DNA of 38,193 nucleotides from an uncultured Clostridia bacterium (GTDB lineage Bacteria > Bacillota > Clostridia > Christensenellales > CAG-917), in assembly GCA_947589635.1 (NCBI GenBank), contig CANQCC010000003.1:1-38193 (forward strand), read 5' to 3'. Numbering within the stretch: the first letter of the stretch is position 1; each line of letters opens with the position of its first letter. A program made the translations under genes and the position numbers. Positions 3,262 through 37,571 of this stretch are shown here, piece after piece. The notes under the pieces are model-generated. The model was not told the origin of the DNA and did not search any database. It worked only from the letters and a program-made list of their open reading frames with translations.

Positions 3262-3498
3262 ATGGACGACAGAAATATTGTTAAAAAACTCGCTCAGCTT
3301 ACAAACATGAATGTGATGGTGCTGTTTGTGCTCATCGCGTTTTTGGCGTTGTCTATCGGGCTTGCGTTCTACTTTCTTGTCCCGGGCAGCGTGGGTTACG
3401 GCGTAGGGATCACGATGTTTGTCGTGGCGTCGCTTCTGTTTGTAATCGGCGAGGTAAACTACTTTATGAAGTCAAAGCGTATCGATTGGCAAAACTGA
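3262..3498 (+). CDS. Small hypothetical membrane protein (78 aa, 2 predicted TM helices)
   Basis: Strong SD AAGGAGGTG before ATG; two hydrophobic stretches; flanked by terminators on both sides. Confidence 0.75.
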   Translation: MDDRNIVKKLAQLTNMNVMVLFVLIAFLALSIGLAFYFLVPGSVGYGVGITMFVVASLLFVIGEVNYFMKSKRIDWQN

Positions 3499-3517
3499 GT
3501 AAGCCGATCGGACAAAG

Positions 3518-3547
3518 CAAAAGGGACTGCGAAGGCGGTCCCTTTTG
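3518..3547. terminator. Bidirectional intrinsic terminator
   Basis: CAAAAGGGACTGC-gaag-GCGGTCCCTTTTG between convergent genes. Confidence 0.8.
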
Positions 3548-3602
3548 TCATAATTTTAATGCGTAATTTTGCATGAAAACAAGCGGCACTTTCTTGCCCA
3601 CG

Positions 3603-3721: not shown

Positions 3722-6532
3722 TTATGCCCAGGCGCTGCCGTTGAAGGTGTAGGTCTTGTCCGTCTGCATGTCTGCGTCGCCTATCGTCGCGTTGCACACG
3801 ATATCCGTCACTTTGTCGTTGGGGTCATTTTGAGACAGCAGCGGGAAGGTGGACGCGGAGCCCTCTTTGATGGTGATGGTCAGCGTGGTTTTTGGCGAGA
3901 CGATGACCGTCGCGCCCGCGACCTCGGAGGTTATCTTGCCGCCGAAGTACGCGCCGTTTTCTATGTGCAGAGTGCCGTTGACGATAAGTTTCGCCTCCCC
4001 TTTGTTGTGAGGATAGACCGGGTGGTTATATACCACCGACTCGTCCTGCCAACTGCCGTCGTAGACCGCCAGGGAACCGTAGGCCATGTTTTGATAGAGG
4101 CCTATATAAAAGTCTGCGCCCTTTTCCACGGTGAGTTTTGCGCCGGGCAGCAATTTGTATCTCATGCCCAACTTCAGCGAGTAGCCGGTATTAAGGGTTA
4201 TGTCGTACATATGCGGCACGGCAAAGTCGATCGCGCCCGTCGTTACAAGCTGCTCAAAGCCGGAGAAAGACACCTTCAGGCTGAGTTTACCGACAGCGAC
4301 ATCGCCCAGGATGTCCAATTTTGTGGAGGTCTTATATTTGTCGGCAAGCTCCATTTTGTTGTTGCTGAGCGTTATGCCGGCGTTATATTCGGACGAAACT
4401 TTCACTTTGAGTTCCCCGTTTTGCAGGTTTAGAAGTGCGCCCGTTTTGCCGACTATCAAAACCTCCGTATCGTTGTGTTGCTCGCCCGCGTAGATGGAGC
4501 AATATACAAACACTTTAGCGCCGTATTTCAAGGTCTGATATACCTGGATGTTGGGCATCTCATACTGATTGAATGGGCAGATTTCGTACGTCGTATAGAC
4601 CTGCGCGGTGTTGGATCCGCCGCGGAAGTCGCGCACCACAAACGGAGTGTAAATCGTGCCGCCGTCAAGCGCGATAAGTTGTCCGTCGCCCTTGATGTAG
4701 CCGTGATTTTGCAGGGTCCCGCCCGCCGCGACGGTTATGCAGGCGCCTTCGAGGATGTCTATCTGCGCGTACTCGCCCTGAGTTGCGCCCTGGAAGGTAA
4801 ACGTGTCCTTGCTGCTGCTTATGCCGCCCACTACGACAGCGCCGTTCACGGTGAGGTTTGCGCCATCTTTCAGCGTGAGCTTTCGCCTGAGATTGTTTTG
4901 CTCGTCGGAGATATCTATATAGAAGATGGTGGAAGTCACTTCAAGGTGCCCCGTGATGTGCGCGTCGTCATCCGAGCCGTCATAGGGCAGCACAAGTCTG
5001 GACAGCGCATTCAAGGTGTAATCGCCTTTGATAAGATGAGTGTCGCAAAGGGGAAGAATTATAAACGTATCGCCCGTCGCGTATCCCGAAACCTTCGTGG
5101 GGTCGACGGCAAGCGCGTCTTCCAAAGTGCGCTTCATCTGAGATTTTATATTGCCGGTCGCGTCCTTAAGGTATGTGGATACGCACCTTATCTTTATCGT
5201 CTTGCTGTCGCGCGCCTCTTTATAATGCGCGCTCTCCTTAAGCACCGCGGTAAGCGTGTACGTGCCGCCGTCCGTTATGGAGAATGAGGCGCCGTTTACG
5301 GGCTCGCCGTCAAGCAAAAACTCAAACTGAGGCGCATCTTTATAAGCTTGCGTAGTCACGGTTGCCGAAGCGGAGAAGGCCAGAGGCTCTCCCGTCCAAT
5401 CCCTCAAGCGCACGCTGTCGTCGATATTCAGCGAACAATTGGCGGGCAGCTTAGTCACATGCACCGTGAAAGAGGTAGACGCCATCGCGGTAGAGTTGTT
5501 TTCCGCCATCGCGGTAAGCTCGCACCTGAACTGATAATCTCCCACCTCGAGGCCGGATATATCATAATTTTCGCCGCTCGATTTAAGCTCGTCCGCGCCG
5601 TCCTCGCCCGTGCCTATGCGGTACCATGCCACGCTGTAGGTTATGCCGTTTGGCGCGACGGCAGAGGCGGCCCCTTTAAGGCGCAGCGTGCCTGTGTACA
5701 GCACCGAAAAGTCTGTGCCCGAAGTGCCTCCCAGCCCCGTGTCGGTTATGACGGGAGGGGCGGGTGCGTCCGCGTTGTATATGGGATAGTAGGTGGACTC
5801 ATAGTCGCCGACCGTAGTTGTGCCTTCGGCGTATACGGCTCCTCCGGTTCCCTTTTTCCAGCCCGCAAACGTGTGTCCCGCCTTTGCGGGAGGGTCGACG
5901 GGCGGAGGGGGCAACTGCTCGTTGGGATCGCCGGAATATCTGAACAGCGTTTCGCCGTTCGCGACGAAAGACGCGCATCCGCCCGCTTCCTGCAAGTCCG
6001 CCTGAATGGTCATATCGCTCTCGATGGCGGCGTCGCTTTCCCAGGTGTCGTTACCGCTTTTCCAACCGACAAATTTGTTCATTTTGGGGATTTTCATCCA
6101 GAAGTCGTTAAATTCGGGCGGGGTAGCCTCCCCTCCGTGCTCCACTTGTTGAGGATCGCACAGGTCTTTGGCACTGTCCCCGCTTCCAACGACGAAGCGC
6201 ACTGTGTAGACGTTTATCTCCCAGATAACATAAAGTTTCGAGCCGTCCGAAATCACGCTATTTTCCGAAATCGGCGGTTCGCCGTCCTCGTACAGCGAAA
6301 GTCCCGTCGCGTGATAGCCCTTGTACACATACGGGCACTCCCAGGAGGACAGCTCGGAGCGGAGCAGGGTGTAATCCTCGTGCGCGGAAGTGCCGTTGTT
6401 GGCGTAGATCGTGACGGTTATGGGCGTCTCTTTGGCCGTCTTGTTGCACGCAGCCAGCGTAAACGCAAGCGCAAGGATCAAAACAGCCGCTGCCGCAAGC
6501 CATATTGCGGTCTTTTTAAGGTAGCGTCGCAT
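3722..6532 (-). CDS. Large surface lipoprotein (936 aa): InlB B-repeat-like domains, Ig/MBG-like stalk, beta-rich C-terminal domain
   Basis: Basic N-terminus, hydrophobic core and lipobox LAAC (Cys29); three repeats with YTVxF...GY/FxGW...LY/TI pattern; GTYTLT..HY MBG-like module; repetitive LTV.GA.LTVNG strands; SD AAGGAG upstream. Confidence 0.8.
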   Translation of the reverse strand: MRRYLKKTAIWLAAAAVLILALAFTLAACNKTAKETPITVTIYANNGTSAHEDYTLLRSELSSWECPYVYKGYHATGLSLYEDGEPPISENSVISDGSKLYVIWEINVYTVRFVVGSGDSAKDLCDPQQVEHGGEATPPEFNDFWMKIPKMNKFVGWKSGNDTWESDAAIESDMTIQADLQEAGGCASFVANGETLFRYSGDPNEQLPPPPVDPPAKAGHTFAGWKKGTGGAVYAEGTTTVGDYESTYYPIYNADAPAPPVITDTGLGGTSGTDFSVLYTGTLRLKGAASAVAPNGITYSVAWYRIGTGEDGADELKSSGENYDISGLEVGDYQFRCELTAMAENNSTAMASTSFTVHVTKLPANCSLNIDDSVRLRDWTGEPLAFSASATVTTQAYKDAPQFEFLLDGEPVNGASFSITDGGTYTLTAVLKESAHYKEARDSKTIKIRCVSTYLKDATGNIKSQMKRTLEDALAVDPTKVSGYATGDTFIILPLCDTHLIKGDYTLNALSRLVLPYDGSDDDAHITGHLEVTSTIFYIDISDEQNNLRRKLTLKDGANLTVNGAVVVGGISSSKDTFTFQGATQGEYAQIDILEGACITVAAGGTLQNHGYIKGDGQLIALDGGTIYTPFVVRDFRGGSNTAQVYTTYEICPFNQYEMPNIQVYQTLKYGAKVFVYCSIYAGEQHNDTEVLIVGKTGALLNLQNGELKVKVSSEYNAGITLSNNKMELADKYKTSTKLDILGDVAVGKLSLKVSFSGFEQLVTTGAIDFAVPHMYDITLNTGYSLKLGMRYKLLPGAKLTVEKGADFYIGLYQNMAYGSLAVYDGSWQDESVVYNHPVYPHNKGEAKLIVNGTLHIENGAYFGGKITSEVAGATVIVSPKTTLTITIKEGSASTFPLLSQNDPNDKVTDIVCNATIGDADMQTDKTYTFNGSAWA

Positions 6533-6568
6533 ACGAATCTCCTTATATTTTATATCGCATATTATTTT

Positions 6569-9500
6569 TTACGGTTTATATCTGTACTCGCTTGTCGCGT
6601 CAAACATGACAAACCTGAAGTCCTCTTCTCCCGCCGCAAGCGGCAACAAGGAGCCTTGCATCGATATGTTTGCGTCGTAGGAATTTTCAAGCATGGACAG
6701 GTTCATCGTATAAGTCGACATCGGATAGAACGTGTACCCCGACATATCCAGCATATGATAATTTTTGCCGCCGCCGTAGAAGGCTATGCCGCCGTGCACG
6801 CATTTTTCGTCCCCATTGTCCCCCTTGACGACGTCTATCAGGTTGCCGTAGCGATCCTTGTCATACATGAACGCAAAGTCCACAAGCGCCTTTATGTCAA
6901 GCCGCAGGAAGGACGCCGCGCCGCCCGAGCCGGACAGCTCTATAAGCGTGCTGCTGTCCACGTTGTCGATGGGTTTCCAGTCCGCAAGCTCCACTCTTCC
7001 CTCGAGGTGCAGCAGCGCGGGGTAGGACGTGCCCGCAAGCCCCTTCCACGATTGCACAAGCGATGTTGCTATGCCCGCGGAGGGGCCGTCGGCAAGCATC
7101 TTGCCCGCAAAGTGGCTCTCCATGCCTATCGCAAACAGGCCGCTTGTGCTGAGAGTGCTGTCGCGAAGGGTGACCTCCGTCAGCAGGTAGCGGTTGATAA
7201 AATATTCGTCGTTGATATACTCGTCGCAAGCGGCGGAATTGAAGTTTGCATAATCGTTTCCGTTTGCGTCCTTAAGGGCGGGGGAGGGCGCGTTATAATC
7301 CGCGCTTCTAATTATGCGGTTGGTGCCCATCTTAAGCAGGAATTCGCGCGCGTTTTGCAGCGTGCAGCCCTCTATAAGCACGTTTATCTTTTCCTCTTCG
7401 ACGTTTACGGGACTGTCCGCGTCGACGCCCGCCTTGCCGAATATCCTGACTACCGTCCTTCCGTTAGCCACGCGGCAATTTCTTACGGTGGCGTCGTTCA
7501 TTATCTCAAGCGTCGTCCCGGTGTAGCTGAGAAGGGACAGATTGAGGGTGGGGTTTCCGTTGTCGTCCGCGTCGTACAGGCTTTGGTCGTCGCAGCCCTT
7601 AAGGGTCACGTTGTCCAGGGTCAATCCCTCTTCGCGCACGAGGAAGATTATGTTGTCCTGCCCCTTGACGGACGCCGTCTGCCCCGCCGCCACAAAGTCG
7701 AGAGGCCCCGAAAACACCGAGAACGTGGGCTTGTCCGTCTCGTCAAGCGTGTTGGTCAGGTATTCTGCGTTTATCTGATGCCCGTTGCCAAAGATGTCGC
7801 CTTTTATCTCAAGCGCGTACTTGACTGTGGGCTGCGCTTGTCCGTTGTTTTTGTAGAATTGCCAATCCCAGGTCGTGGGCAGTTCCTTGACGTAGCGGCG
7901 CTGTATGTCCAGCCCTTCGGAGTCGGACACTTTCTTTGCAAGCCGTCCGTTTCTTATCAGGCGTTTGCCGTCGGAGTCGCGCTCGTAGAGGTCCTCGCCA
8001 AGGTAGACGTCGCGCTCCAGCACCGTCTTTTTGCCCTCGTTCATGGCGCGGGTGAGGTCGTCTCTCGCCCTTTCGGGGGAGAGGTCTTCGCCAATGCTTA
8101 TGCCGTCCACCGCCATAAACGTCAGTTTTGCGGGGGATACGCCGCGCTTTTCGCCGTATTTCCAGCGCGCCGTGAGGGTCAACTGCCCATTCTTTTTGAC
8201 AAGCAGGGAAAGTTTTGCGTTTGCAATATCAATTTCGCCGCCCTCGTCGTCGGAAAGCTCAAAGATTATGTCGTCGAAGGACGTCGCCTGTTCGCCGCCT
8301 TTGCCCAGCGCGATAAAGCCGAGCTCGCGTGGGTTGTCAAGAATTTCGCCGTTTTGCCCATAGCGTTTGCCCGCTATCGCAAGCAGTCCCGCGCCGTGCG
8401 AACCCGCCGTCTCCTTGAAGGACAGCGACTCATAGGCGTGCGCGACAGTAAGTTTGCGCTCTATCACGCCCGAAGTCACAAGCTCGCCTTCCTCGTCCGT
8501 CTGAGTCCAATACACCTTGAGGGTGGCGTCTCCCACTCCAAGCGCGTCGATTATTGCTCGTTCGCCGTCCGCGCTTTTTACCGACGCGACTGTCGCGCCC
8601 GCCGAAATTATCTCCCAGCGGTAGGTCAGGCGATCGTTTTTGGGAGTCGCCGAAACCATGAACGTCGTGCTGTCGCCCAACATCATCAAAAGCTTGTCGT
8701 CGTCCGCGCGGTTGCCCGCCGAGTAGATCCTGAATCTGTATTCGGCAAATTCCACGTCGACCCGGAAAGCGGCTTCGCCCACGCCGAGCGTATACGTCTT
8801 GCGGCACTCCGCGTCCACGGACGAGGCAAGCCTCGCCTGCACTCTGAACGCGCCCGATATCCCCTCTATGGGAGATGAGATCACGTCTATGTTTGCGCCG
8901 GTCTCGTCTTTAAGCGTTATGTCGTTTGAGGAAGTCCCCGCGGGGGCTTGCAGGAAGAAGGAAAAGTCCGAAGAGCGCAAGGGTGCGGAAAGTTTTACGC
9001 CGCTTTGCGCGTCCTTGCCCTCCAGCGTGGTCCCGCCCGCCTTTGTCACGTTGAGTTTTATCGTGACGGGATCCGCCTTGCCTATCTTCATTGTGACGAC
9101 GGAGCTTCCGTCAAATCTCGCGCAGATATCGCCGCTGAGCGCGTCCACGCTAAGCCTCGTCTCGTCCGAAGAGGAGTAATTTATCTCGGAGGGGGACACG
9201 TCGGGGAAGCAGGTCGCGCCAAGGGTATAATCTCCGCTTACGACGTCCGCCTCGAAGTCCGCGTCCGCGCCCGCCTTGAGCTGCACCTTTTCACCGCTCG
9301 CGTCGCGCAGGTCGGGGGAGGCCTTTATGACGTCGCTCGCCCTTATCACAAATTGCACGCTTGCGGTAAACGCGCCGTCCTCGCTCGCGTAGGTTATCTT
9401 GACTTTGCCTATGTCGGTTATGTCGAAATATTTGCCGTTTTCGTCCTCCGCGAGGGCGACCGTCGTTGACGGCTCCCCTGTTTCGGCGTCCGTCACCGAT

Positions 9501-9748
9501 TGCAGATAGAAGTTTCTGTTGGCTGCCACCGAGGGCACCACCTCTATGCCGAGGTCGTCCTCGTACAGCGGGGAATCCTTATACCCGACAAGATCGAAAT
9601 AGAACGTACCGTCGTCGCCGCGATTGCCGATGACTATGCCCGTCGCGGGGATGTTGGCGGTGATCCTCGCCACGCTTGTTATCGCAAAAATCGCCACCAC
9701 GAAGATGAGCGGGAGTACGATTATAAGCGCTGTGACAAGTTTTTTCAT
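6569..9748 (-). CDS. Large membrane-anchored/secreted protein (1059 aa): Ig-like (Big_2-like) domains and putative right-handed beta-helix
   Basis: N-terminal hydrophobic segment KKLVTALIIVLPLIFVVAIFAI; Big_2-like YSSSDETRLSVDALSGDI; IFGNGHQI, LTLDNVTLKG, TVRNCRV, LIEGCTL, VTLRDSTL beta-helix-like rungs; starts 1 nt after the permease stop. Confidence 0.8.
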   Translation of the reverse strand: MKKLVTALIIVLPLIFVVAIFAITSVARITANIPATGIVIGNRGDDGTFYFDLVGYKDSPLYEDDLGIEVVPSVAANRNFYLQSVTDAETGEPSTTVALAEDENGKYFDITDIGKVKITYASEDGAFTASVQFVIRASDVIKASPDLRDASGEKVQLKAGADADFEADVVSGDYTLGATCFPDVSPSEINYSSSDETRLSVDALSGDICARFDGSSVVTMKIGKADPVTIKLNVTKAGGTTLEGKDAQSGVKLSAPLRSSDFSFFLQAPAGTSSNDITLKDETGANIDVISSPIEGISGAFRVQARLASSVDAECRKTYTLGVGEAAFRVDVEFAEYRFRIYSAGNRADDDKLLMMLGDSTTFMVSATPKNDRLTYRWEIISAGATVASVKSADGERAIIDALGVGDATLKVYWTQTDEEGELVTSGVIERKLTVAHAYESLSFKETAGSHGAGLLAIAGKRYGQNGEILDNPRELGFIALGKGGEQATSFDDIIFELSDDEGGEIDIANAKLSLLVKKNGQLTLTARWKYGEKRGVSPAKLTFMAVDGISIGEDLSPERARDDLTRAMNEGKKTVLERDVYLGEDLYERDSDGKRLIRNGRLAKKVSDSEGLDIQRRYVKELPTTWDWQFYKNNGQAQPTVKYALEIKGDIFGNGHQINAEYLTNTLDETDKPTFSVFSGPLDFVAAGQTASVKGQDNIIFLVREEGLTLDNVTLKGCDDQSLYDADDNGNPTLNLSLLSYTGTTLEIMNDATVRNCRVANGRTVVRIFGKAGVDADSPVNVEEEKINVLIEGCTLQNAREFLLKMGTNRIIRSADYNAPSPALKDANGNDYANFNSAACDEYINDEYFINRYLLTEVTLRDSTLSTSGLFAIGMESHFAGKMLADGPSAGIATSLVQSWKGLAGTSYPALLHLEGRVELADWKPIDNVDSSTLIELSGSGGAASFLRLDIKALVDFAFMYDKDRYGNLIDVVKGDNGDEKCVHGGIAFYGGGKNYHMLDMSGYTFYPMSTYTMNLSMLENSYDANISMQGSLLPLAAGEEDFRFVMFDATSEYRYKP

Positions 9749-9749
9749 A

Positions 9750-11438
9750 TCAGTTCTCCGCGTCGAGGTTGGAATATGTCTTCTTCAGGTTGATAAAGAA
9801 GAACGCCGCCGACAGTCCCAACAGTATGAGGGGGATGATAAGCGCGTATACATAGCTTAGCGTCCTGTTTGTGGCGGCGGCTACGGTGTTGGTAAGTATC
9901 GCGCGCACCGCGTTGAATAAAAGCAGCACGCCTATGATAAGGCACACTCCGAGGCCGATGACTATTATTGCGGACACCGTGGAGTTTGCCTCCTTTATCT
10001 CGCCGTCGTCCGTCTTTGAGAAGTGCGGGTGGTTGAGGTCCAGCCTTGTTGCAAGCGCTATTTGCGCGAGGGACAGCATGACGGCGGAGAAGAATGTCGC
10101 CGTCGCGTTCGCCGGAGACTCCAACCCCGTCGCCGAAAGCGCGATACAGCTTACGGCAATGCTCAATATGGACACCGCCGCGCCGAAAATCATTTTTGCC
10201 GAAAGTATCTGCGCCGGCGAATAGGGCATGGTCTTTTGCATCATTACCATATATCCGTCGCGGCTTATACTTGTGGAGCAGAATGTGTTTGTCAGCGTGC
10301 CGTACAGCAGCACGAGGAATGTGCATATCTCAAAGTCTATGTTGAGTTCGCCAAGCAGCGTACCTATAAGCGCGTTGCTGAGGCTCGCCGAATAATAGAC
10401 CATGATGGGCATGATTATCGCGGTCGTAAAGTACATGTAAGAATATCCCGGCGTGCGCAGCACAAGCGTGAACTCTTTTTTGATAAGGCTTAAAAGGCGC
10501 GGAGTCTTTCTGAAGTGGAACTCGCGGCGCTTTATGTGCGGGACGTAGGGCGCAAAGCCGCTTTGTGTGACGCGGATGAATATCGCGTGTATTATCGCGA
10601 CGCCTATCCCCGCCGAGCCGACAAGTATCGCGGCAAGTATGCCTATACTCTTGCCAAGGTCGCGCCCCAGCATTATATTCGCAAACAGATTGGCGGGATA
10701 ATCGTACGCCGAAAAGCGTATTATCTTGCGCATGACCACCTCGTTGAACAGCGAGGCGAGCTTGCCGGAATTGAGAAGGTTTTGCGCAAACGCAAACACG
10801 TACGAATACAGCACGCAGAACCCCGCCATTATAAGCGTCATCGTGACAAACGACAGCAGGTAGTGCGAATTTATAAACCGCTTGACATAATAGTATGGCA
10901 GCACGATGACGGACGCTATGCCAAGCGGGATTATGGGAAGGATAAGCGCGACGACTATCGTCATCAAGACGTTGTAGGCGTTTATAAGGTTTGTCGTCAC
11001 AAAGAAAGTCAGGTTTACGGGAAGCACAAAGACGAGGGACAGCACAAGCTGCCTGAGATATATCCCCGTCATCTTCGCCGAGAATATCTCAAGCGCGGAA
11101 AACGGCATGGAGATAAGCACGTTTATGTCGCTGTTTTCAAACAGCGTGTAACAAAGACGGTTGACTCCGCTGAGCACGCATATGACAAACAGCACAAAAT
11201 ACGCCATGGACATCAGCTCGAATTGTCTTGAGGCGATGTCTGGCACGCGGTTTATCTTTATCGCCGTGTATGTGGATGTGAAACGTGAAAAAATAAGCAC
11301 GAACGCCGCGATTATCCCCGCGACAAGCGCTGCCATAAGCGCCGCCGACACAAAAGAAGTCGCGCGGAATTTGCCCTTGCTGCGCGAAGGCAACATATCC
11401 GACAGCTGTTTTTTGAGTAGCAGCGCGTAATGCGTCAT
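9750..11438 (-). CDS. ABC-2-type exporter permease with two homologous halves (~562 aa)
   Basis: More than 12 hydrophobic helices; duplicated motif LISMPFSALEIFSAK / QKTMPYSPAQILSAK; start reassigned to ATG 11438, which overlaps the ATPase stop (ATGA). Confidence 0.85.
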   Translation of the reverse strand: MTHYALLLKKQLSDMLPSRSKGKFRATSFVSAALMAALVAGIIAAFVLIFSRFTSTYTAIKINRVPDIASRQFELMSMAYFVLFVICVLSGVNRLCYTLFENSDINVLISMPFSALEIFSAKMTGIYLRQLVLSLVFVLPVNLTFFVTTNLINAYNVLMTIVVALILPIIPLGIASVIVLPYYYVKRFINSHYLLSFVTMTLIMAGFCVLYSYVFAFAQNLLNSGKLASLFNEVVMRKIIRFSAYDYPANLFANIMLGRDLGKSIGILAAILVGSAGIGVAIIHAIFIRVTQSGFAPYVPHIKRREFHFRKTPRLLSLIKKEFTLVLRTPGYSYMYFTTAIIMPIMVYYSASLSNALIGTLLGELNIDFEICTFLVLLYGTLTNTFCSTSISRDGYMVMMQKTMPYSPAQILSAKMIFGAAVSILSIAVSCIALSATGLESPANATATFFSAVMLSLAQIALATRLDLNHPHFSKTDDGEIKEANSTVSAIIVIGLGVCLIIGVLLLFNAVRAILTNTVAAATNRTLSYVYALIIPLILLGLSAAFFFINLKKTYSNLDAEN

Positions 11439-12313
11439 TTCTCTTCGTCCTCGCTTTGCGCGTTTTGTATGGCGCCGTCCTCTATAGTATCCGCGCAAGG
11501 CTCCGCCGCGAGGGGCTCCTCATGCGACGCCTTTTCCTCCTCCGCCGCGCCTTCGAAGTCTGATCTTGTGCGGGACAGGAAATATGTCTCAAGGTCGACG
11601 CCTTCGTGCTCCTTGGCGAAGTCGGCAAACTCAAAATCGTCCGTCTTTACGCCGTGGTTTATAATGACCGCGCGCTTGCACAGCTTTTGCACGGAGACTA
11701 TGTTGTGCGAGGAAAACAAAATGCAATTGCCCTTGCTTGCGTAATCAAGCATAAAGTCGCTGACTCGGGCGCTTGTGACGGGGTCGAGGCCTATCATAGG
11801 CTCGTCCATTATCCAAAGTTTGGGGTGATGTATAAGGCTGCCCATCATGCAGACCTTCTGCCTCATGCCGTGCGAGTAGTTGCTTATCGGGTCGTTAAGC
11901 CTGTCGCCAAGGCAAAACACGTCGTCCAGCTCCGCAAGGCGGGACTTTCTGTCCGCCGCGCTCACGCCGTAAGCGTCCGCCATAAAGGTTACGTATTGAA
12001 TGCCCGTCATCTTTACAAACACGTCGTGCTTGTCGCTGACAAAACCGAAAGTGTATTTTGCTTTGACGGGGTTTTGTTTGATGTCGAAGCCGTTTATCTT
12101 TATGCTGCCCTTTTCAAACGGAAGCATGCCGGTAAGGCACTTCAGCGTCGTGGACTTGCCCGCGCCGTTGTGGCCGAGCAGACCTACGATCTCGCCGGGG
12201 TAGCAGGTCAGACTTAGGTCGTTTACGGCGGGCGACGCGGCGCGCGGATAGTGCTTGACAAGACGCTCGATCTCTATGGACGGAGTGATGATGTTGGCGG
12301 GTGAATTTTCCAA
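11435..12313 (-). CDS. ABC transporter ATP-binding protein (EcsA/ABC-2-like)
   Basis: Walker A GHNGAGKS, signature YSHGMRQK, Walker B WIMDEP, H-loop FSSH; TTG start with AAGGAG SD. Confidence 0.93.
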   Translation of the reverse strand: MENSPANIITPSIEIERLVKHYPRAASPAVNDLSLTCYPGEIVGLLGHNGAGKSTTLKCLTGMLPFEKGSIKINGFDIKQNPVKAKYTFGFVSDKHDVFVKMTGIQYVTFMADAYGVSAADRKSRLAELDDVFCLGDRLNDPISNYSHGMRQKVCMMGSLIHHPKLWIMDEPMIGLDPVTSARVSDFMLDYASKGNCILFSSHNIVSVQKLCKRAVIINHGVKTDDFEFADFAKEHEGVDLETYFLSRTRSDFEGAAEEEKASHEEPLAAEPCADTIEDGAIQNAQSEDEEK

Positions 12314-12411: not shown

Positions 12412-12441
12412 ATAATATCAAATTAACCGCAAAGTGTACAA
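12412..12441 (-). promoter_or_regulatory. Candidate sigma-A promoter of the ABC/surface-protein operon
   Basis: Minus strand TTGTAC-18-TATTAT with extended -10 TG (TGaTATTAT). Confidence 0.45.
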
Positions 12442-34940: not shown

Positions 34941-36886
34941 ATGGACGTCATGACGGAACAAAATTCACGCGTGCAGGAGCACATCCTTGTCTGCCTTTCT
35001 TCCGCCCCTTCCAACGCGAGCATAATCCGCACCGCCGCGCAGATGGCAAAGGCATACGGCGGGAGGTTCACCGCGCTTTTTGTTGAGACGGCAAATTTTT
35101 CTAAGGCAACTCCCGCGGACAAAGCCCGCCTTGCGGAACACATCGAGCTTGCCAAAAGCCTTGACGCGGAGATCGAGACTGTTTTCGGCGACGACATCGC
35201 CTATCAGATCGCGCGATTTTCCGAAGAGGCGGGAATTACCAAACTTGTCATAGGCAGAAGCACTTTTACAAAGCGGCGCCTCTTTTCAAGATCCAACCTC
35301 ATCGACAGCCTTCTTTCGTACGCGCCCGAAGTGGAGATCCACATAATCCCCGACAAAAACGCCGACGCGCCCTACGTCCCCAAAAGATCGGGCGGCGGGT
35401 GGCTTAAAATTTTGATAAACGCGGGCATAAGCCTTGCGATACTCGGCGTGGCGACGCTGCTTTGTTACCTCTTTCAACGCCTCGGCTTTGCGGACGCCAA
35501 CATGATCATGGTCTCGGCGTGCTTGTGACTTCGGTCGCGACGTCAAGCATAGCGTTCAGTCTGTTGTCCTCTCTGGCGGGAGTGCTGCTCTTCAATTTTT
35601 TGTTCACGGTGCCGCGCTTTTCGCTTACGGCGTACGGCACGGGATACCCGGTGACCTTCCTCATAATGTTTATCACCGCGGGCGTATCCGGACTGCTCGC
35701 GCAGAGGTACAGAAGCCAGGCGAGCGGCTCGCACAAAACCGCTCATCGTTTGAAACTTCTGCTTGACACAAACAAGCTGTTGCTCAGCGAGACGGACGGG
35801 GACAAGATCCTAACTCTTGCGGCAGGGCAGTTAAAGAAACTGTTTAAGGCGGACGTCATAATCTTCGACGCGGACATGAACGTAAAGTATTTCCCCGCCG
35901 ATACGACAAAACCCGCTGTTTATGACCTCGAAACAGAAAGAAAAAGTGCCGAATTTGTGATAAACGGCAGTCAAGCTCCCGCCGAAAAGGCAGAGGCAAA
36001 ACCCAAGTTTTTCTATCTTCCTCTCAGGGTGGAAGACAAATGTTTCGGCGCGATAGGGATCCCCGACGACGCGCTTGGAGCCTTTGACAGGGACACGTTT
36101 ATGTCCGTCGCGCTTGAATGCGCGCTCGCGCTCGCCAACGAGCAGAACAGGCGGGAGAAGGAAAAAGTCGCCATAGTCGCAAGCAACGAACAATTGAGGG
36201 CGAACATACTTCGCTCCATATCTCACGATCTGCGCACGCCGTTGACGTCCATTTCCGGGGGCGCCGCCAACCTGCTTGAAAACGGGGATAAGCTTGACGA
36301 GGAGACAAGAAAAAGTTTGCTCCGGGACATCGTCAAGGAGTCCGAAAGGCTTTCCGAGCTTGTGGAAAACGTGCTTGCCTCCACGCGCATGGAGGACGGC
36401 GAATTTAAGTTGCGCCTCTCCGACGAGCTGATAGGCGACATCGCCGACGCCGCGGTAAACTACTGCTCCAAGAGGACGGAAGGGCGCTCGCTCTCGCTGG
36501 TTTCGGACGAAGGCATGTGCTTCGTAAGCGCGGACGCCAAGTTGATAGTGCAGGTTATCGTCAACCTTATAGACAACGCGATAAAGTATACGCCCGCCGG
36601 CTCGCACATCGAGGTGAGAGTGGAAGACGTCGGCAACAATGTGCGCGTAAGCGTGGCGGACGACGGCTACGGCGTGGCGGAAGAGGATAAACCCCACATC
36701 TTCGAAAAGTTTTTCAGAGGGACAAACGGCATATCGGACAGCAGGCGCTCGCTCGGGCTCGGGCTGTACCTCTGCAAGGCGATAATCGAGGCGCACGGCG
36801 GCGCCATCCGCCTCGAGGACAACGTGCCTCACGGCGCAAAATTCGTATTCGAACTTGCTAAAAAGGAGATAAAGATAAATGAATAA
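34941..36886 (+). pseudogene. kdpD: KdpD-type sensor histidine kinase (Usp-DUF4118-GAF-like-HisKA-HATPase), split by a frameshift near 35514
   Basis: Frame 1: EHILVCLSSAPSN Usp domain and first TM, ending ANMIMV; frame 2 resumes LGVL..FNFLFTVPR, SISHDLRTPLTSI, NLIDNAIKY, DDGYG, GLGL. The junction lacks 1 (mod 3) nt. Could be an assembly error. Confidence 0.8.
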
Positions 36887-37571
36887 ACCGCTCATTCTTG
36901 TCGTTGAGGACGATCCCTCCGTGCGCAACCTGATCGCCACTACCCTAAAAGCCAACGATTTTGGCTATATTTTGGCGGAGAGCGGTTCGGACGGCGCGGC
37001 GCAGGCGGCGACGCACAATCCCGATATAATCCTGCTCGACCTCGGCCTCCCCGACATTGACGGCATAGAGGTTATAAAACAGGTGCGCGGCTGGGCGATC
37101 ACTCCCATCATCGTCATAAGCGCGCGCAGCGAAGACTCCGACAAGATCGCGGCGCTCGACGCGGGCGCGGACGACTATTTGACCAAACCCTTTTCGGTGG
37201 AGGAATTGCTCGCTCGCCTGCGCGCTACCCAGCGCCGCCTCGCCTATACAAGCAGCGCCTCCTCAACTTCCGTATTTGAAAACGGCGGACTCAGAATAGA
37301 CTACGCCGCAGGCTGCGCCTCCCTCGACGGCGAGGAGCTCCACCTGACCTCCATCGAGTATAAATTGCTCTGCCTGCTCGCGCAAAACGTGGGCAAAGTC
37401 CTCACCCATAAGTTCATCACCACAAACGTCTGGGGCAGCAGCTGGGATAACGATATCGCCTCCCTGCGCGTCTTTATGGCCACCCTCCGCAAAAAACTCG
37501 AGAGCGCCGACAAAGAAAGACAATATATCCAAACCCATATCGGCGTCGGCTACCGCATGGTCAGGTTGTAA
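36879..37571 (+). CDS. kdpE: KdpE-type OmpR-family response regulator
   Basis: ILVVEDD, LLDLGLPDIDG, PIIVISAR, ALDAGADDYLTKPF, KVLTH, LRVFMATLRKKLE, IQTHIGVGYR. Confidence 0.92.
   Translation: MNKPLILVVEDDPSVRNLIATTLKANDFGYILAESGSDGAAQAATHNPDIILLDLGLPDIDGIEVIKQVRGWAITPIIVISARSEDSDKIAALDAGADDYLTKPFSVEELLARLRATQRRLAYTSSASSTSVFENGGLRIDYAAGCASLDGEELHLTSIEYKLLCLLAQNVGKVLTHKFITTNVWGSSWDNDIASLRVFMATLRKKLESADKERQYIQTHIGVGYRMVRL

Follow-up and report, generated by a model that had tools for sequence, protein, structure and literature searches.

A conserved gene set of an ABC transporter and a membrane-anchored beta-helix protein in uncultured gut Clostridia

The DNA analysed here, referred to as the window, comprises all 38,193 nucleotides (nt) given for contig CANQCC010000003.1 (assembly GCA_947589635.1) of an uncultured Clostridia bacterium. 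Between positions 3722 and 12313 its minus strand carries four genes of the same orientation, which encode an ABC (ATP-binding cassette) ATPase, a permease, an anchored protein of 1059 amino acids (aa) and a 936-aa lipoprotein, in this order. The ATPase gene (12313..11435) begins with a TTG start codon preceded by AAGGAGAG and specifies a DrrA/ABC-2-type protein of 292 aa with an acidic C-terminal tail. Its stop codon and the ATG of the next gene overlap in the sequence ATGA. This second gene (11438..9750) encodes a 12-helix ABC-2-like permease of 562 aa, and a single T separates its TGA stop from the ATG of the open reading frame (ORF) for the 1059-aa protein (9748..6569). The ORF of the lipoprotein (6532..3722) follows after a spacer of 36 nt that contains AAGGAG. 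An original prediction, drawn up from the letters of the DNA alone, had described this arrangement as an operon and a candidate surface-assembly system, and the four co-oriented genes, the ATGA overlap, the 1-nt gap and the 36-nt spacer with its Shine-Dalgarno sequence were all found where it had placed them.

The first three genes stay together in relatives. One genome per species was scanned, 262 encoding stretches were obtained and the best 80 loci were kept; these come from uncultured Clostridia and Christensenellales of the rabbit, mouse, chicken, ruminant and human gut. The permease gene is situated directly 5′ of the beta-helix gene and on the same strand in 72 of the 73 loci with more than 2 kb of upstream sequence. 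A permease profile matches 73 of the 80 loci; among the seven loci without a match, the contig ends too near the gene in six, and the seventh is the locus L005. The distance between the permease stop and the next start, measurable in 61 loci, is +1 nt (24 loci), −4 (16), +2 (10), +4 (4), −1 (3), +3 (3) or +12 (1). Hence, the gap lies between −4 and +4 nt in 60 of 61 loci, though the proteins are merely 30-46% identical. Judged from these spacings, translational coupling between the permease and the beta-helix gene is conserved across the relatives. ATPase, permease and 1059-aa protein form a strict unit, the core triad. The unit is also retained when it is duplicated: five genomes have two copies of the beta-helix gene, and eight of these ten copies have a permease gene of their own next to them, whereas for the other two none was found on their contig. 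As no more than two candidates per genome were scored, these copy numbers are minimum values. The loci do not show the pattern that would have spoken against the prediction, in which homologues of the 1059-aa gene stand mostly without the ABC pair.

Beyond the module, flanking-ORF clusters from 81 sources contain no further conserved neighbour. In this table, from which the window's own row was left out, the clusters of the module comprise 76, 73 and 51 sources, followed by FtsH with 20 of 81. A co-conserved regulator, solute-binding or glycan-synthesis gene was found in none of the 80 loci. At E ≤ 1e-20, the 1059-aa protein occurs in 54 of 401 genomes of the window's order, in 52 of the 345 high-quality genomes and in 16 of 20 genomes of the window's own family. 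The term 'lineage-specific' used in the prediction is fair in this sense, but outside the family the distribution within the order is patchy. A separate observation concerns L005 in the genome G401, the sole unlinked case of 73. A near-identical ABC pair lies on another contig of this genome (L086) with no beta-helix gene adjoining, which may reflect a rearrangement or a binning error.

The 1059-aa protein consists of three parts. A single N-terminal hydrophobic segment was detected by hydropathy at residues 5-23, within a membrane helix assigned to residues 1-27 (9668..9748, minus strand; consensus MKKxVxALxxVLPLIFL). Residues 28-544 (8117..9667, minus strand) make up an immunoglobulin (Ig)-like stalk of the Big_2 type, as indicated by profile and Pfam matches in the family. 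The family profile matches the Big_2 domains of PDB chains 7quz and 8s83 (profile positions 61-132 and 170-233); Big_2 itself gave no match with the 1059-aa protein of the window but did so with 11 of 19 family members. The remaining residues 545-1059, together with the stop codon (6569..8116, minus strand), encode a right-handed parallel beta-helix head according to AlphaFold2. Anchor, Ig-like modules and beta-helix had all been read from the sequence before, and the reading was borne out. Mean pairwise identity in the family is 0.51 for residues 1-27, 0.47 for the head and 0.27 for the Ig stalk. Thus, the stalk is the least conserved part, and the membrane helix is about twice as conserved as the stalk and on a par with the head. 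Across 19 sequences, M1, L8 and P13 do not vary. A plain signal anchor would be unlikely to stay so conserved, and the chief indication that the N-terminal helix contacts something specific in the membrane comes from here. Modelled as a complex without controls, the permease and residues 1-135 of the 1059-aa protein scored 0.28 against a mark of 0.32, which is neutral with regard to binding.

The model of the C-terminal 515 residues is confident (AlphaFold2 predicted local distance difference test, pLDDT, 93.7; predicted template modelling score, pTM, 0.94), and the head is modelled with little ambiguity as a right-handed parallel beta-helix. Best matches in VIA-align are 7chu (Z 15.6, root mean square deviation, rmsd, 3.3, 224 residues aligned) and the alginate lyase 6kfn (Z 15.3). 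Further down the best 50 matches, the lowest of which has Z 10.8, come tailspike depolymerases, pectin esterases and lyases. Nearly all of the top 50 matches of this head, and likewise of the lipoprotein head described below, are beta-helix proteins. Foldseek returned no match for the 1059-aa head at E ≤ 1e-3, and the Atlas clusters recovered with it are generic beta-helix clusters, with recognition under the usual mark. A sequence relative of the head of either large protein was found neither in Pfam scans, which included 19 and 52 relatives, respectively, nor in PDB profile searches. Sequence identity in the structural alignments of the beta-helices is 6-15%. As far as these models go, the structural matches of the 1059-aa head define its fold and not its family.

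The head is conserved in a characteristic manner. In 65 sequences it has 39 invariant columns spread along the helix, and the polar invariants include Q153, D154, N155, N218, R220, R224, E258, K381, H441 and N452. Its family is small: from 1.84 billion proteins, 417 representative clusters were obtained at E ≤ 0.001, of which 292 reach E ≤ 1e-30, and in 150 of 150 proteins listed the head domain is C-terminal. Most full-length members among the proteins listed measure about 940-1160 aa; four measure about 1935-2243 aa. Scoring of 8000 candidates yielded 447 relatives of the 1059-aa protein at E ≤ 0.001. Among the 120 of these that were listed, 119 have 1012-1085 aa and one is a 668-aa partial sequence, and the six named ones are all called 'hypothetical protein'. 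A far longer beta-helix protein is encoded at L065:6554-12592, where the frame has 2013 aa, and also at L064, L057 and L072, all in metagenome-assembled genomes labelled Bacilli or Clostridia.

The ATPase domain matches Pfam ABC_tran (E 3.5e-27). All NCBIfam matches stay under their cut-offs and the DrrA subfamily comes closest, with drrA TIGR01188 as the best match at 171.1 bits under a cut-off of 312.45. Identity of the ATPase with its relatives in the loci is 42-80%. The acidic tail at residues 250-292 (11435-11560, minus strand) is a low-complexity segment of about 40 residues. It appears to be poorly conserved, since tblastn matches of most relatives end near residue 250.

In the permease, 13 hydropathy peaks overlap and can be merged to about 10 segments; the designation '12-helix' is owed to how the nearest Atlas families are named (PF09847, 12TM_1) and not to this count. 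Similarity to Pfam ABC2_membrane (PF01061) is marginal, with E 0.0049 and 16.9 bits under a cut-off of 26.9, and ABC2_membrane_4 matched weakly in 3 of 47 permease relatives. The nearest Atlas clusters carry PF16949 (ABC_tran_2) and PF09847 (score 0.98), families of uncharacterised 12-helix permeases of Bacillota. A PF16949 match of the window's permease was not obtained at E ≤ 0.1 in the Pfam scan; among its 47 relatives, one matched PF16949 (5.3e-5) and two matched PF09847 (2.2e-5), all weakly. A profile search of the PDB returned no sequence relative of the permease at E ≤ 10. Its N-terminal and C-terminal halves align in register (hhalign E 2.7e-4, probability 42%), which lends weak support to a probable internal 6+6 duplication.

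The product of the fourth gene begins with a lipoprotein signal peptide (6446..6532, minus strand; ...LAFTLAAC) ending in a lipobox-like L-A-A-C with Cys29. The assignment is by the lipobox consensus; most relatives with a clear start have an L/V-A/G-A/G-C box behind a hydrophobic stretch. Residues 30-436 (5225..6445, minus strand) resemble a stalk of Listeria-Bacteroides-type repeats and PKD- or Ig-like modules, based on sub-threshold Pfam matches, namely Flg_new at residues 188-244 (E 1.3e-5, 25.6 bits, cut-off 27) and K319L-like PKD at residues 272-357 (E 9.5e-4, also under the cut-off). Lipobox, repeat-like stalk and beta-rich head of the earlier description stood, but its MBG modules did not: none was detected in the window's lipoprotein, and they are present in one of 52 C-terminal slices of relatives. 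Stalk length varies strongly among the relatives, the whole proteins having 862-2514 aa.

Residues 437-936 with the stop codon (3722..5224, minus strand) are predicted to form a second beta-helix head (AlphaFold2 pLDDT 91.3), so that both large proteins carry a C-terminal beta-helix on a stalk, in agreement with the two stalked beta-helical partners proposed before. The structural neighbours of this head are adhesin-like. VIA-align matches include the autotransporter passengers Vag8 (7akv, Z 11.0), TibA (4q1q, Z 10.0) and Ag43 (7kob) as well as tailspikes, and the best Foldseek match is TibA (8.6e-4). Conservation is far below that of the 1059-aa head, with a mean column identity of 24% and two invariant columns. 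The lipoprotein gene is also less tightly bound to the module. A profile of its head matches 53 of the 80 loci, every time on the same strand, so that the predicted co-conservation of all four genes holds for the ABC pair with the 1059-aa gene but not for the lipoprotein. The gene is found either directly 3′ of the beta-helix gene (862-2220 aa) or, in a Borkfalkia-like group, directly 5′ of the ATPase gene (1339-2514 aa). In five of five genomes that lack it at the locus, none with a completeness estimate, the head was absent genome-wide, and the positive control was detected in five of five. The lipoprotein is frequent but dispensable and not an obligate fourth part. Another head of this type was noticed in G401 (G401:C6:17492-18868), in a 2484-aa open frame (E 2.9e-73) about 11 kb from the second ABC module of that genome.

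Such second modules are present in the window's genome as well. On contig C26 (G000, L092:5412-10984, minus strand), genes for a 310-aa ABC ATPase, a 569-aa permease and a 971-aa anchored Big_2 protein lie next to each other. In this case the permease exceeds the PF16949 cut-off (33.6 versus 25.7 bits), as does a sister permease in the genome of a relative (42.9 versus 25.7 bits). A third pair on contig C50 (L093:4834-9794, plus strand) comprises an ATPase and a 589-aa permease after an MgsA-like gene, and about 1 kb downstream a 421-aa leucine-rich repeat (LRR) protein of the BspA type is encoded. G401 has the same second and third arrangements, the third on contig C12 (L088), and hhalign relates the tail of its 981-aa protein distantly to the head family (probability 72%, E 3.4e-5). 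Pairing of such permeases with an anchored surface protein is a recurring theme.

A 998-aa anchored Big_2 protein encoded on contig C61 (G000, L083:4616-7612, plus strand) was considered as a second copy of the 1059-aa protein and rejected. The two have in common their build and the N-terminal 92 profile positions (E 1.9e-9), and a pairwise BLASTP comparison was not significant. At 42% identity to the 971-aa protein, the 998-aa protein groups by sequence with the sister-module family of the latter, and no ABC pair adjoins its gene. The gene has hydrogenase-type genes on one side and a gene for a germination protease (Peptidase_A25) on the other; the protease is a hint that the window's organism may form spores.

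A described system that matches the gene set was not found in Pfam, NCBIfam or PDB sequence searches, nor in the literature outside subscription journals, which is in line with the original prediction. The set is a conserved gene set without earlier description, a variant of an ABC transporter with an extracytoplasmic partner. Its closest counterpart in composition is the NosDFY-NosL complex, in which the beta-helix protein NosD is reported to take copper from the lipoprotein NosL and to hand it on in an ATP-driven cycle (PMC13685413). Both sets consist of an ABC ATPase, an ABC-2-type permease, a right-handed beta-helix protein and a lipoprotein. The elongated beta-helix of NosDFY is located on the outer face, and its ABC cycle performs conformational work outside instead of solute import. 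In contrast to the NosY dimer (PDB 7o0y), the permease here is one fused 12-helix chain, the beta-helix protein is anchored in the membrane on an Ig stalk, the lipoprotein has at least 936 aa and a beta-helix of its own whereas NosL is a small copper chaperone, and the host is a gut fermenter. Membership in NosDFY fails every sequence test, which leaves a functional analogy.

Few ABC transporters are known to spend their ATP cycle on the outside of the cell rather than on solute movement; NosDFY, FtsEX, LolCDE and LptB2FG are examples, and each of them taught a new mechanism. In LptB2FG-LptC, the membrane helix of the partner sits in the transporter, and in FtsEX with PcsB or EnvC the ATP cycle activates an enzyme outside. 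Both resemble the present set in that an ABC transporter acts with a bitopic or extracytoplasmic partner, a likeness without a claim of homology; they belong to other ABC classes and their partners are not beta-helices. EcsAB of Bacillus shares with it an ABC-2-type ATPase, a multi-helix permease and an origin in Bacillota, and the locus had been labelled EcsAB-like for its ABC-2 pair. This label finds no support, as neither the permease nor its 47 relatives, which matched nine families overall, gave an EcsB-family match. We know of no EcsAB locus with adjacent beta-helix proteins. GldAFG was rejected as well (GldA TIGR03522 at 153 bits, cut-off 402.6), and so was an importer, given an exporter-type ATPase and no solute-binding protein. 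Among the beta-helix proteins, the pectin-lyase-fold enzymes and tailspike depolymerases (7chu, 6kfn, 6c72, 8ja4, 1xg2) have the right-handed parallel fold in common with the 1059-aa head, and the autotransporter passengers share theirs with the lipoprotein head. A near context in print is the Toastrack-ABC-GntR-lipoprotein operon, the beta-helix of which is single-stranded and predicted in that paper to be intracellular (PMC11237479). Neither the two large proteins nor their relatives matched DUF4097, DUF2154 or DUF2807, and there is no GntR gene among the neighbours. Unlike Toastrack, the head described here stands on an extracellular Big_2 stalk and has a pectin-lyase-type fold.

We tentatively propose, with somewhat less than even confidence, that the operon encodes a dedicated membrane complex that resembles NosDFY in function, in which the ABC pair would hold the anchored beta-helix protein and perform ATP-driven work on the outer face. 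The genes, the strictness with which they are linked and coupled, the folds and the pattern of conservation are observed; from them we infer that the parts bind each other, as well as their stoichiometry, the direction of the work and the substrate. Two copies of the DrrA-type ATPase would power one internally duplicated, ABC-2-like permease with 12 helices. This permease would grip the bitopic beta-helix protein through the conserved N-terminal membrane helix. Binding and hydrolysis of ATP would then be converted into conformational work outside the membrane, either by switching the head between states or by loading it with a substrate that has passed through the permease. A carbohydrate or another envelope polymer appears the most likely substrate because the fold is pectin-lyase-like and invariant polar residues form a long row. 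The lipoprotein, stalked and tipped by an adhesin-like beta-helix head of its own, might serve as an optional client or partner.

Several observations weigh against this proposal. NosD (PF05048) was matched neither by the two large proteins (E ≤ 0.1) nor by 19 relatives and 52 lipoprotein heads (E ≤ 0.01). A match to NosY (PF12679) or NosL was not obtained either, and there is no nos gene among the 24 neighbours of the operon in the window (nosZ was not searched genome-wide). In structure, NosD (7o0y_A) aligned with the lipoprotein head at Z 8.2 (rmsd 5.9, 250 residues, rank 18), which is in the generic beta-helix range, and it is not among the best 50 matches of the 1059-aa head, the lowest Z there exceeding this value. 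One Atlas cluster with 23% NosD members scored 0.93 and is regarded as a lead only. To our knowledge, NosD is not membrane-anchored, so that the idea of an anchor held in the permease leans on the other analogy, LptC. The polar conservation of the head suits an enzyme equally well as a switchable adaptor, and an enzyme needs no ATP-driven motion. The lipoprotein is not an essential client, since five of five genomes were found to lack its head. Finally, with the ABC pair and the beta-helix-lipoprotein pair of G401 on separate contigs, adjacency is not absolute.

The same data accommodate other functions. Wzm/Wzt and TarGH are ABC exporters of surface polysaccharides and teichoic-acid-like polymers, and the ABC-2 pair might likewise export such a polymer, which the beta-helix protein would process outside as a lyase, epimerase or trimming enzyme while the lipoprotein binds the product. 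The DrrA/ABC-2 type of the ATPase, the polysaccharide lyases, epimerases, esterases and phage depolymerases that are the nearest structures of the 1059-aa head (Z 12-15.6) and the invariant polar residues along the helix, as in a sugar-binding groove, all suit this view. However, a glycosyltransferase, polymerase or sugar-nucleotide gene is neither co-conserved in the 80 loci nor present beside the operon in the window. According to the original prediction, a glycan, a lipid or the anchored proteins themselves would be exported or remodelled, and this stays a conjecture to which no co-conserved glycan-synthesis gene lends support. Moreover, the permease is of the fused 12-helix form with no more than marginal similarity to ABC2_membrane, the ATPase has an acidic tail only and lacks a carbohydrate-binding extension, and three such modules in a 1.4-Mb genome would imply three exported polymers. 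Taken together, we consider polymer export fairly unlikely. Alternatively, the ABC pair could insert, extract, release or quality-control the N-terminal helix of its neighbour and thus place or shed one surface fibre, the lipoprotein being a separate matter. Such a device would account for one permease per anchored protein even after duplication, for the conserved anchor helix and for the tight coupling, and the sister modules pair related permeases with the 971- and 981-aa Big_2 proteins and possibly with the BspA-type LRR protein about 1 kb downstream. Yet the 998-aa paralogue of the 971-aa protein is an orphan with no adjoining ABC pair, the partners are unlinked in the genome of L005, the high conservation of the beta-helix head would be left unexplained, and we know of no ABC-2 transporter that acts on a signal-anchor helix; this explanation seems unlikely to us.

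As a further alternative, an ordinary drug, peptide or lipid exporter would share its transcript by coincidence with two surface proteins unrelated to it, namely adhesins or carbohydrate enzymes with which the cell attaches or forages in the gut. Judged by family names, DrrA-type ATPases often belong to resistance exporters, the lipoprotein head looks like the adhesin passengers Vag8, TibA and Ag43, and the lipoprotein is dispensable. That 72 of 73 loci keep the genes together, with start and stop still coupled at 30-46% identity, is hardly expected of a coincidence, nor is the joint duplication of the unit. In addition, the head family is confined to 417 clusters among 1.84 billion representatives, in which it is C-terminal in proteins of this build, and a regulator or immunity gene is missing nearby. 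We regard this explanation as very improbable.

The proposed NosDFY-like complex can be widened in view of the sister modules, although the wider version is doubtful. Gut Clostridia would then carry a general class of ABC-powered surface machines. In each of them, a PF16949-like 12-helix permease and its ATPase would be dedicated to one anchored surface protein, grip its conserved membrane helix and spend ATP on switching, loading or releasing a beta-helix enzyme or fibre outside the cell. If true, three such modules would exist in this genome alone, and outside-directed mechanotransmission of the NosDFY type would extend to single-membrane cell surfaces and to carbohydrate-type effectors. Irrespective of mechanism, an ABC-2-like motor is combined with an enzyme-like beta-helix on a membrane anchor in 262 of the species genomes scanned, and the hosts of the set are uncultured Christensenellales with small genomes from the gut of rabbits, rodents, birds, ruminants and people. 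Up to three repeats of the build in a 1.4-Mb genome amount to a large investment, and the large proteins all lack an assigned family. Should the complex exist, a function would be defined for the orphan families PF16949 and PF09847, and gut anaerobes would have a means of ATP-controlled handling of surface or dietary polymers.

The genome that contains the window is a 1.41-Mb assembly with a completeness of 81%. Near-identical DNA was found in ten public runs from three studies, all of them DNA runs of rabbit-gut or gut metagenomes, with no RNA run among them. The genes flanking the operon are housekeeping genes. FtsH, a hexapeptide transferase and CysS are encoded on one flank, and a pyridoxal-kinase-like protein, dUTPase, glutamine synthetase III, CopA, CsoR, DnaG and RpoD on the other. 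A solute-binding protein, regulator, GntR, two-component or glycan-synthesis gene does not adjoin the operon, as judged from a scan of 24 window neighbours; a histidine kinase and a response regulator are encoded at 35462-37571, 23 kb away. The absence of a solute-binding protein, a two-component system and GntR beside the operon is as had been noted before.

Of the single promoter and the terminator assumed originally, candidates are present at both ends, but both are consensus matches only. The promoter-like site at 12440..12412 (minus strand; TGTACA, 17 nt, TATTAT, with a TG before the −10 hexamer) agrees with the consensus in 9 of 12 positions and is located 99 nt 5′ of the ATPase start. 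It is treated as a mere consensus match because such sites are scarcely enriched in the region (12 versus 7.0 ± 2.6 in shuffled sequences). A GC-rich hairpin with a 14-bp stem at 3517..3548, 174 nt past the lipoprotein stop, is a candidate two-way terminator common to the operon and a convergent 78-aa gene. This small gene (3262-3498, plus strand) has its own AAGGAGG site and encodes a small membrane protein with two helices. On the plus strand opposite both large genes, an arginine- and alanine-rich open frame of 1176 aa (5348-8878) looks like a shadow of GC-rich coding DNA rather than a gene.

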